Assembly: GCF_988242995.1 (NCBI RefSeq) | Contig: NZ_OZ547043.1 | DNA: 64,000 bases | Reading direction: 5' to 3' (one strand) | Shown here: piece after piece, positions 7,146-7,715 of the stretch | Layout of the letters: each line of letters starts with the position of its first letter | Position numbering within the stretch: position 1 is the first letter of the stretch | Program-made: the position numbers and the translations under genes | The notes under the pieces: generated by a model | The model's input: the letters and a program-made list of their open reading frames with translations, nothing else | The model's database searches: none | What the model was told of the DNA's origin: nothing

Positions 7146-7195
7146 CAACTGCAACGTTCTTATTATTTCTGGAAAACGTCTCGCAAAAACAAAAC
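7146..7195 (+). repeat. direct repeat copy 1, upstream of yiiE
   Basis: AACTGCAACGTT...TCTGGAAAACGTCTCGCAAAA; near-identical motif recurs at 7588..7635. Confidence 0.6.
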
Positions 7196-7282
7196 GACAT
7201 GCAAAAATCCGCTTTTTTTAAATGATTTTTCGGCGTAATTTTCGCACATACATTAATGAGTAATATATGTAAGGTGGTGGTA

Positions 7283-7501
7283 ATGGCGATGAATACGGTT
7301 TTTCTTCATTTATCAGAAGAGGCAATTAAACGGCTGAACAAGCTTAGGGGCTGGCGTAAGGTTTCACGATCTGCAATTTTACGCGAAGCGGTAGAGCAAT
7401 ATCTGGAACGTCAGCAATTCCCGGTGCGTAAAGCAAAGGGAGGCAGGCAAAAGGGGGAGGTAGTTGGTGTTGATGATCAGTGTAAGGAGCATAAGGAATG
7501 A
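7283..7501 (+). CDS. yiiE: CopG/ribbon-helix-helix family putative transcriptional regulator
   Basis: ORF 7256..7501; the internal Met gives 72 aa (remembered K-12 length); the LSEEAIKRLNKL segment is RHH-like. Confidence 0.85.
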   Translation: MAMNTVFLHLSEEAIKRLNKLRGWRKVSRSAILREAVEQYLERQQFPVRKAKGGRQKGEVVGVDDQCKEHKE

Positions 7502-7587
7502 CAAAAATTTTTCATTCTTGAATATAAAAAAACAGATGCCCTTATTCTGGTATTAATACAAGGCTGTTTTACTTGAACTTATAATAA

Positions 7588-7635
7588 CTGCAACTGTTAC
7601 ATCATATCTGGAAAACGCCTCGCAAAATACGAGAG
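7588..7635 (+). repeat. direct repeat copy 2, downstream of yiiE where yiiF would be expected
   Basis: AACTGCAACTGTT...TCTGGAAAACGCCTCGCAAAATACGAG; no yiiF-sized ORF fits between it and fdhE. Confidence 0.6.
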
Positions 7636-7715
7636 ATTTTGCGGGAATAGCGGGTGTCGTCATACCCTATCAATTGTAATCCGGGCGACCTGCGCCACCC
7701 GGAAAACGTCAGAGA

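Follow-up and report, generated by a model that had tools for sequence, protein, structure and literature searches.

Toxin-antitoxin modules combining a ribbon-helix-helix (RHH) antitoxin with a PIN-domain toxin include, for example, FitAB of Neisseria and the mycobacterial VapBC systems with RHH-type VapB proteins. In such modules the antitoxin gene immediately precedes and abuts the PIN toxin gene, as is also the case in the intact vapBC locus of E. coli described below. Their operators are usually located at the start of the antitoxin gene, which is where the vapBC locus carries the inverted repeat ATATAC-N5-GTATAT. PDB entries 7BY2 and 7BY3 presumably represent VapBC of Klebsiella pneumoniae described by Kang et al. 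(2020, J Med Chem). This K. pneumoniae study (Kang et al., 2020) is cited as reference 49 in PMC11117207.

The locus analyzed here is located within a 64,000-nt stretch of DNA (contig NZ_OZ547043.1), referred to as the window, the positions of which are used throughout. It contains the RHH gene yiiE, followed by remains of a vapBC module and by fdhE on the opposite strand. The best explanation of this arrangement, to which we assign a probability of about 0.9, is an old tandem duplication plus one 656-bp microhomology deletion of vapBC.

Anatomy of the yiiE-fdhE region

The yiiE gene (7283–7501, + strand), annotated under this name by PGAP in related genomes, encodes a 72-aa protein with a CopG/RHH_1 domain (PFAM: PF01402; 44.6 bits compared to a cutoff of 20.5, E = 1.1e-11). 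YiiE and the VapB-type antitoxin YiiF are diverged paralogues with 40% aa sequence identity over 58 aa.

A repeat search revealed that yiiE is flanked by a 45-nt direct repeat (the box), whose copies, at 7144–7188 and 7583–7627 (both on the + strand), have a spacing of 439 and are identical at 36 of 45 positions (80%). This was the top ungapped 45-nt match within the region 6800–8000, compared to a mean of 25.4 (sd 0.8) and a maximum of 28 in 200 shuffles, which confirms that the direct repeats noticed in the preliminary description are real, with edges that differ by a few bases from those given there. The 21-nt core of the box (TCTGGAAAACGYCTCGCAAAA), located at 7168–7188 in copy 1 (TCTGGAAAACGTCTCGCAAAA) and at 7607–7627 in copy 2, occurs exactly twice in the 64-kb window when up to 3 mismatches are allowed (0 expected). 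A weaker co-linear direct repeat (7055–7080 and 7502–7527) was also found.

The gene fdhE (7716–8645, − strand), recognized as an ORF and from the annotation of relatives, converges on the vapBC remnant. The yiiE-fdhE spacer has a length of 214 bp and its longest ORF has no more than 37 aa, in agreement with the earlier observation that it lacks a yiiF-sized ORF. This spacer comprises (i) an orphaned upstream region (7502–7628, + strand), i.e. the kept 5′ part of a yiiF/vapB unit with box copy 2, which is nearly identical to the yiiE-yiiF spacer of strains K-12, 19KM1831 and 2016C-3878 up to CTCGCAAAA; (ii) the deletion junction CGCAAAATA (7621–7629, + strand), recognized by alignment with the full-length allele of 2016C-3878 as a microhomology between CGCAAAAATA and CGCGAAATA; (iii) a 3′ remnant of vapC (7629–7679, + strand), consisting of the last 16 codons (TRDFAGIAGVVIPYQL) and the stop codon, in frame and colinear with codons 109–124 of the 124-aa PIN-domain VapC of 2016C-3878; and (iv) a conserved stretch (7680–7715) that separates the stop codons of the convergent genes vapC and fdhE and varies among the alleles by just one or two substitutions. 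A consensus scan detected no terminator in this stretch.

The intact allele and the breakpoints of the deletion

An intact allele was identified in strain 2016C-3878 (locus L008), in which yiiE is followed by an 80-aa CopG-type yiiF orthologue (2943–3185 of this locus), by vapC (3185–3559), which overlaps the former by 1 nt and encodes a 124-aa PIN-domain protein (Pfam PIN, E = 4e-19), and by fdhE on the opposite strand. This VapC is approximately 82% identical to chain B of 7BY2 (7BY2_B; E = 9e-63). The CopG/RHH VapB of the intact allele matches 7BY2_A (E = 1e-36), and YiiF matches both the NMR structure 2K5J and 7BY2_A.

Alignment of the window with L008 revealed a single 656-bp gap (L008 2845 to 3501), outside of which the two sequences are colinear. 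The gap is flanked on the left by CGCAAAAATA, at the 3′ edge of box copy 2, and on the right by CGCGAAATA, corresponding to vapC codons ~106–108. These flanks are imperfect microhomologies of 9–10 nt with the form CGC[A/G]AAA(A)TA. A four-way alignment placed K-12 and 19KM1831 beside the window and strain Ecol_316. All four sequences are colinear as far as CTCGCAAAA, where box copy 2 ends; from there the window and Ecol_316 have no counterpart of the yiiF segment at all, and they rejoin the other two ~65 bp before the fdhE stop codon. At the junction of the window, TACGAGAGAT, a sequence of the right flank in K-12, precedes 15 nt (TTTGCGGGAATAGCG) that are absent from K-12. An interpretation of this junction (TACGAGAGAT plus TTTGCGGGAATAGCG) as a complex or template-switch event was dropped once the intact vapC allele had been found.

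The K-12 gene order is yiiE, yiiF and, on the opposite strand, fdhE, so that yiiF is indeed missing from the window relative to K-12, as originally proposed. The suggestion that the downstream repeat is the leftover leader of a deleted tandem paralogue was also confirmed by the alignments, since it matches the yiiF upstream region exactly. What had been overlooked is the toxin gene: the deleted segment is the vapB(yiiF)-vapC module and not yiiF alone. The further suggestion that the repeats themselves mediated the loss of yiiF did not hold. Homologous recombination between the two 45-bp direct repeats is compatible with the position of the left breakpoint, at the 3′ edge of repeat copy 2, but an exchange of this kind would remove yiiE together with one repeat copy and keep yiiF, whereas in the window both repeat copies and yiiE are still present and the right breakpoint lies in vapC, not in a repeat. 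A box-to-box deletion is thus ruled out by breakpoint mapping and hardly credible as the origin of this allele.

The alignments instead show a single 656-bp deletion between the two imperfect 9–10-nt microhomologies in the lineage of the window. It took out the remaining yiiF leader, the complete yiiF gene and ~105 of the 124 codons of vapC, and joined the orphaned upstream box (7583–7627) to the last 16 vapC codons (7629–7679). According to the general logic of toxin-antitoxin systems, joint removal of antitoxin and toxin would be the tolerated way to lose a live module, and the one-step removal of both genes may well have been such a route here.

The base at junction position 7624 is A in the window, Ecol_316 and strain 536, and G in O158:H23 and SCU-387, and it varies within both flank backgrounds. 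Because of this variation the 656-bp deletion may have recurred, and a single origin is not established. The vapC remnants of K-12 and 19KM1831 have two lesions in common, namely deletions of nt 92–304 and nt 334–348. Since the window keeps vapC nt 334–348, its deletion arose in a background where the 3′ end of vapC was undamaged, independently of the decay of vapC in K-12-type alleles.

Ancestral arrangement and duplication of the antitoxin unit

The upstream region of yiiE (7055–7282, + strand) constitutes, with the gene, unit 1 of the old tandem duplication, as indicated by the co-linear repeats and by its colinear alignment with the yiiF upstream region of the full-length allele L008. The yiiE unit (the gene and ~225 bp of DNA upstream of it) can be aligned over its entire length with the yiiF unit at 67–80% DNA identity. 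The unit-to-unit identity amounts to 72% upstream of the box, 80% in the 45-nt box, 70% between the box and the ATG codon and 67–69% in the coding sequence; it reaches 95% in the 21-nt core. By this comparison the 45-nt repeat is the stretch of highest conservation within an old tandem duplication of ~445 bp (yiiE unit, yiiF unit), and of unit 2 only the upstream ~127 bp are retained in the window.

An outgroup scan with YiiF as the query, using one genome per species, returned 16 non-Escherichia loci from Citrobacter spp., Salmonella enterica subsp. diarizonae, Enterobacter, Pseudocitrobacter and Kluyvera. All 16 have the same organization, in which fabY is followed by the box, vapB, an intact vapC and, on the opposite strand, fdhE, with a single RHH gene and with the box core ~112 nt upstream of vapB. 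Therefore, both the linkage of vapBC to fdhE and the box are ancestral.

These loci also bear on the opposite polarity, in which the single-gene state would be ancestral and an insertion or duplication would have brought yiiF, alone or together with vapC, into K-12-like strains. The tandem paralogy of yiiE and yiiF does imply that a duplication happened at some time. However, in the window the yiiF upstream region has been left without its gene and the last 16 vapC codons persist in frame, a combination that deletion alone yields, and all 16 outgroup loci have intact vapBC beside fdhE. A gain of yiiF in K-12-like strains is thus very unlikely, and the loss of vapBC by deletion is the preferred reading.

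Among the genomes returned by the YiiF scan, yiiE is restricted to Escherichia, and it appears from sequence comparison to be an Escherichia-specific tandem duplicate of the box plus vapB antitoxin unit within this set. Its product differs from YiiF-type proteins in the DNA-reading β-strand, which is NTVFLHL in YiiE versus the invariant GRILLDL, and the C-terminal toxin-binding tail has diverged as well. One short contig of 807 bp (locus L026; accession no. NZ_ABFU01000111.1), labelled Bacillus coahuilensis m4-4, contains the box, yiiF and a yiiE whose product matches that of E. coli at 99% identity (tblastn); the contig is almost certainly E. coli DNA that contaminates the B. coahuilensis assembly.

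Allele frequencies in E. coli genomes

The distribution of the alleles was determined in 5,426 complete E. coli genomes. yiiF was detectable in 4,745 of these and absent from 681, and full-length vapC was present in 57. A 61-nt probe covering the junction and the vapC 3′ end had matches in 735 genomes by blastn, a minority of them inside an annotated VapC toxin gene (the same probe detected only 139 genomes by megablast, an undercount caused by the 28-nt word size). Subtraction of the 57 intact alleles leaves ~678 deletion alleles, which agrees with the number of genomes without yiiF.

Three states can thus be distinguished: (i) intact vapBC (~1% of the genomes), (ii) orphan yiiF beside a decayed vapC (~86%, including K-12) and (iii) deletion of the module (~12.5%, ~680 genomes). 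The deletion allele is carried, among others, by UPEC 536 and LF82. This is an ordinary strain-to-strain gene-content (presence/absence) polymorphism of a known toxin-antitoxin family. The three states nevertheless form a tidy natural series for the decay of chromosomal toxin-antitoxin modules.

In K-12, the vapC pseudogene has no annotation in the RefSeq record, and a REP-like palindromic element is inserted in the 5′ vapC remnant within the yiiF-fdhE spacer (L001 ~4000–4135). The value of the present analysis for this strain lies mainly in annotation: the most fitting description of K-12 yiiF is that of a VapB-type antitoxin gene without its toxin partner, the adjacent vapC being an unannotated pseudogene.

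Other insertions were observed in the same region of individual strains. Ecol_867 contains a ~2-kb insertion (a DUF6708 protein plus a hypothetical protein; L005 4567–6180) between yiiE and the yiiF box. UTME-10 carries IS1 at this location and IS621 after yiiF (L006 5724–6418 and 7016–7996), and in CUWW06 IS1 replaces yiiE (L007 3765–4462). The fabY-yiiE spacer is a variable hotspot, in which the window has an intact 617-aa ORF (4735–6588, + strand) whose product has no convincing Pfam domain, and B2 strains have an alpha/beta hydrolase gene and a hypothetical/NadS pair instead. The equivalent of the 617-aa ORF in close relatives is split by PGAP into a pseudogene (“hypothetical, missing C-terminus”) and a “transposase”, and only a 117-nt fragment is present in K-12.

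Over 9 kb (window 3000–12000), the best matches among the 5,426 complete genomes, i.e. O158:H23 CFIAFB20140388, THO-008 and Ecol_316, show 98.6–98.9% identity. The strain from which the window derives is therefore outside this collection and somewhat divergent.

The conserved upstream box

Cross-genus alignment revealed three conserved islands in an otherwise diverged upstream region: (i) a LexA-type palindrome CTGT-N8-ACAG beside the divergent alpha/beta-hydrolase gene, (ii) the box core, with the invariant positions T.TGGA.A....CTCG.A.AA, and (iii) TGATATACTGGAGGTATATATG at the vapB start, with the inverted repeat ATATAC-N5-GTATAT around the Shine-Dalgarno site. The box core is invariant across at least six enterobacterial genera. 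The inverted repeat occupies a position more typical of antitoxin operators than that of the box core, and may be regarded as the candidate operator. The version at yiiE is different, which parallels the changes in the β-strand of YiiE. The box core is common to both paralogues, which would suggest a common reader.

The LexA-type palindrome is perfect (CTGTATGnATATACAG) and lies ~70 nt upstream of the box core in loci L011–L027, except L019 and the short L026 (e.g. L020 ~2315–2330). Of the non-Escherichia genera, all but Pseudocitrobacter have it between the vapBC box and the start of the divergent alpha/beta-hydrolase gene; the corresponding E. coli sequences are degenerate (CTGGTATTAATACAAG). 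Its presence suggests possible SOS control of the ancestral vapBC locus.

Searches for known elements gave negative results. No σ70 consensus site (−35/−10, at least 9 of 12 positions) was found on the + strand in 6950–7800 of the window or in L008 2150–3650, and a consensus scan for intrinsic terminators detected none on the + strand in either box. An Rfam covariance-model search of 6900–7800 gave no match at E ≤ 1, and comparison by eye with MetJ, LexA, PurR/Cra, σE and σ32 motifs gave no convincing match in the window. A conserved small ORF overlapping the box was considered and rejected, as stop codons and indels, inspected by eye, differ between copies and genera.

A σ54 (−24/−12) promoter was a further candidate. 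If the box core (CTGGAAAACGYCTCGCA) were such a promoter for yiiE and yiiF, transcription from its orphan copy in the window would run toward the 3′ end of fdhE. The core does have the correct GG-N10-GC spacing and resembles glnAp2 (TTGGCACAGATTTCGCT). However, with a σ54 matrix built from 50 published sites the two box copies score 5.3 and 3.7 bits, compared to a minimum of 7.9 bits for real sites, and 189–325 17-mers in the window score at least as high as the box copies. In addition, the main-text tables of the σ54 ChIP-seq and gSELEX studies of K-12 contain no site at yiiE/yiiF, the nearest being inside fdoI. The σ54 promoter was rejected on the basis of a score below that of every real site and of the absence of a site from these main-text tables; we regard it as highly improbable. 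The fdoI site of K-12 (Bonocora IS47, CTGGCGCGAATTCTGCA) reads CTGGCGCGAATTCTACA at ~9108–9124 (− strand) of the window, where the conserved −12 GC is changed to AC.

Most simply, the second box copy of the window is a relic of the upstream region of the deleted operon. The box may be considered a candidate cis-regulatory element of vapB-type genes, the orphan copy of which would be mainly such a relic. Alternatively, this copy could still function in the window, for instance by binding YiiE or a host factor or by serving as part of a promoter. In favour of this, the core shows no variation among six genera, in which it lies ~112 nt upstream of vapB; its versions in the two paralogous units share 95% identity, compared to 67–72% for the remainder of the units; and none of the deletion alleles inspected has a change in it. 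On the other hand, no gene follows the orphan copy in the window, UPEC 536 has substitutions in the 5′ part of its orphan box, and the conservation could reflect a short time since the deletion. Continued function of the orphan box is thus possible but on balance unlikely.

A more specific proposal, which we advance tentatively and consider rather doubtful, is that the box core could be the site of a common regulator or an unconventional promoter element tying vapBC and yiiE to a host signal, and that the orphan copy could still act in this manner. If so, the orphan box of deletion strains might, for instance, act as a decoy or initiate transcription that converges on fdhE. The relic reading remains preferred. 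For the specialist nothing in this locus is surprising, and the conserved upstream box represents a small residual curiosity.

Comparison with known systems

Several described systems can be set beside this locus. The deletion has the features of microhomology-mediated (illegitimate) deletions of bacteria, in which DNA is cleanly lost between short imperfect direct repeats; in this respect nothing is unusual. We know of no counterpart in RHH/PIN modules of the additional conserved box ~112 nt upstream of vapB.

The yiiE-yiiF region of E. coli K-12 (b3889-b3890) is the same locus, with the same yiiE and the same upstream boxes as in the window. The difference is that in K-12 only vapC has decayed and yiiF survives as an orphan antitoxin gene, whereas the window has lost yiiF and most of vapC together.

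The intact E. coli allele has a two-gene operon architecture in common with K. pneumoniae VapBC, and by homology a toxin-antitoxin role may be predicted for it. In contrast to K. pneumoniae VapBC, the window lacks both genes and has only the upstream box and 16 vapC codons: the PIN toxin gene is not full length (codons 109–124 only) and the antitoxin gene is absent. The locus is a vapBC deletion remnant adjoining an RHH paralogue, rather than a member of this group of modules.
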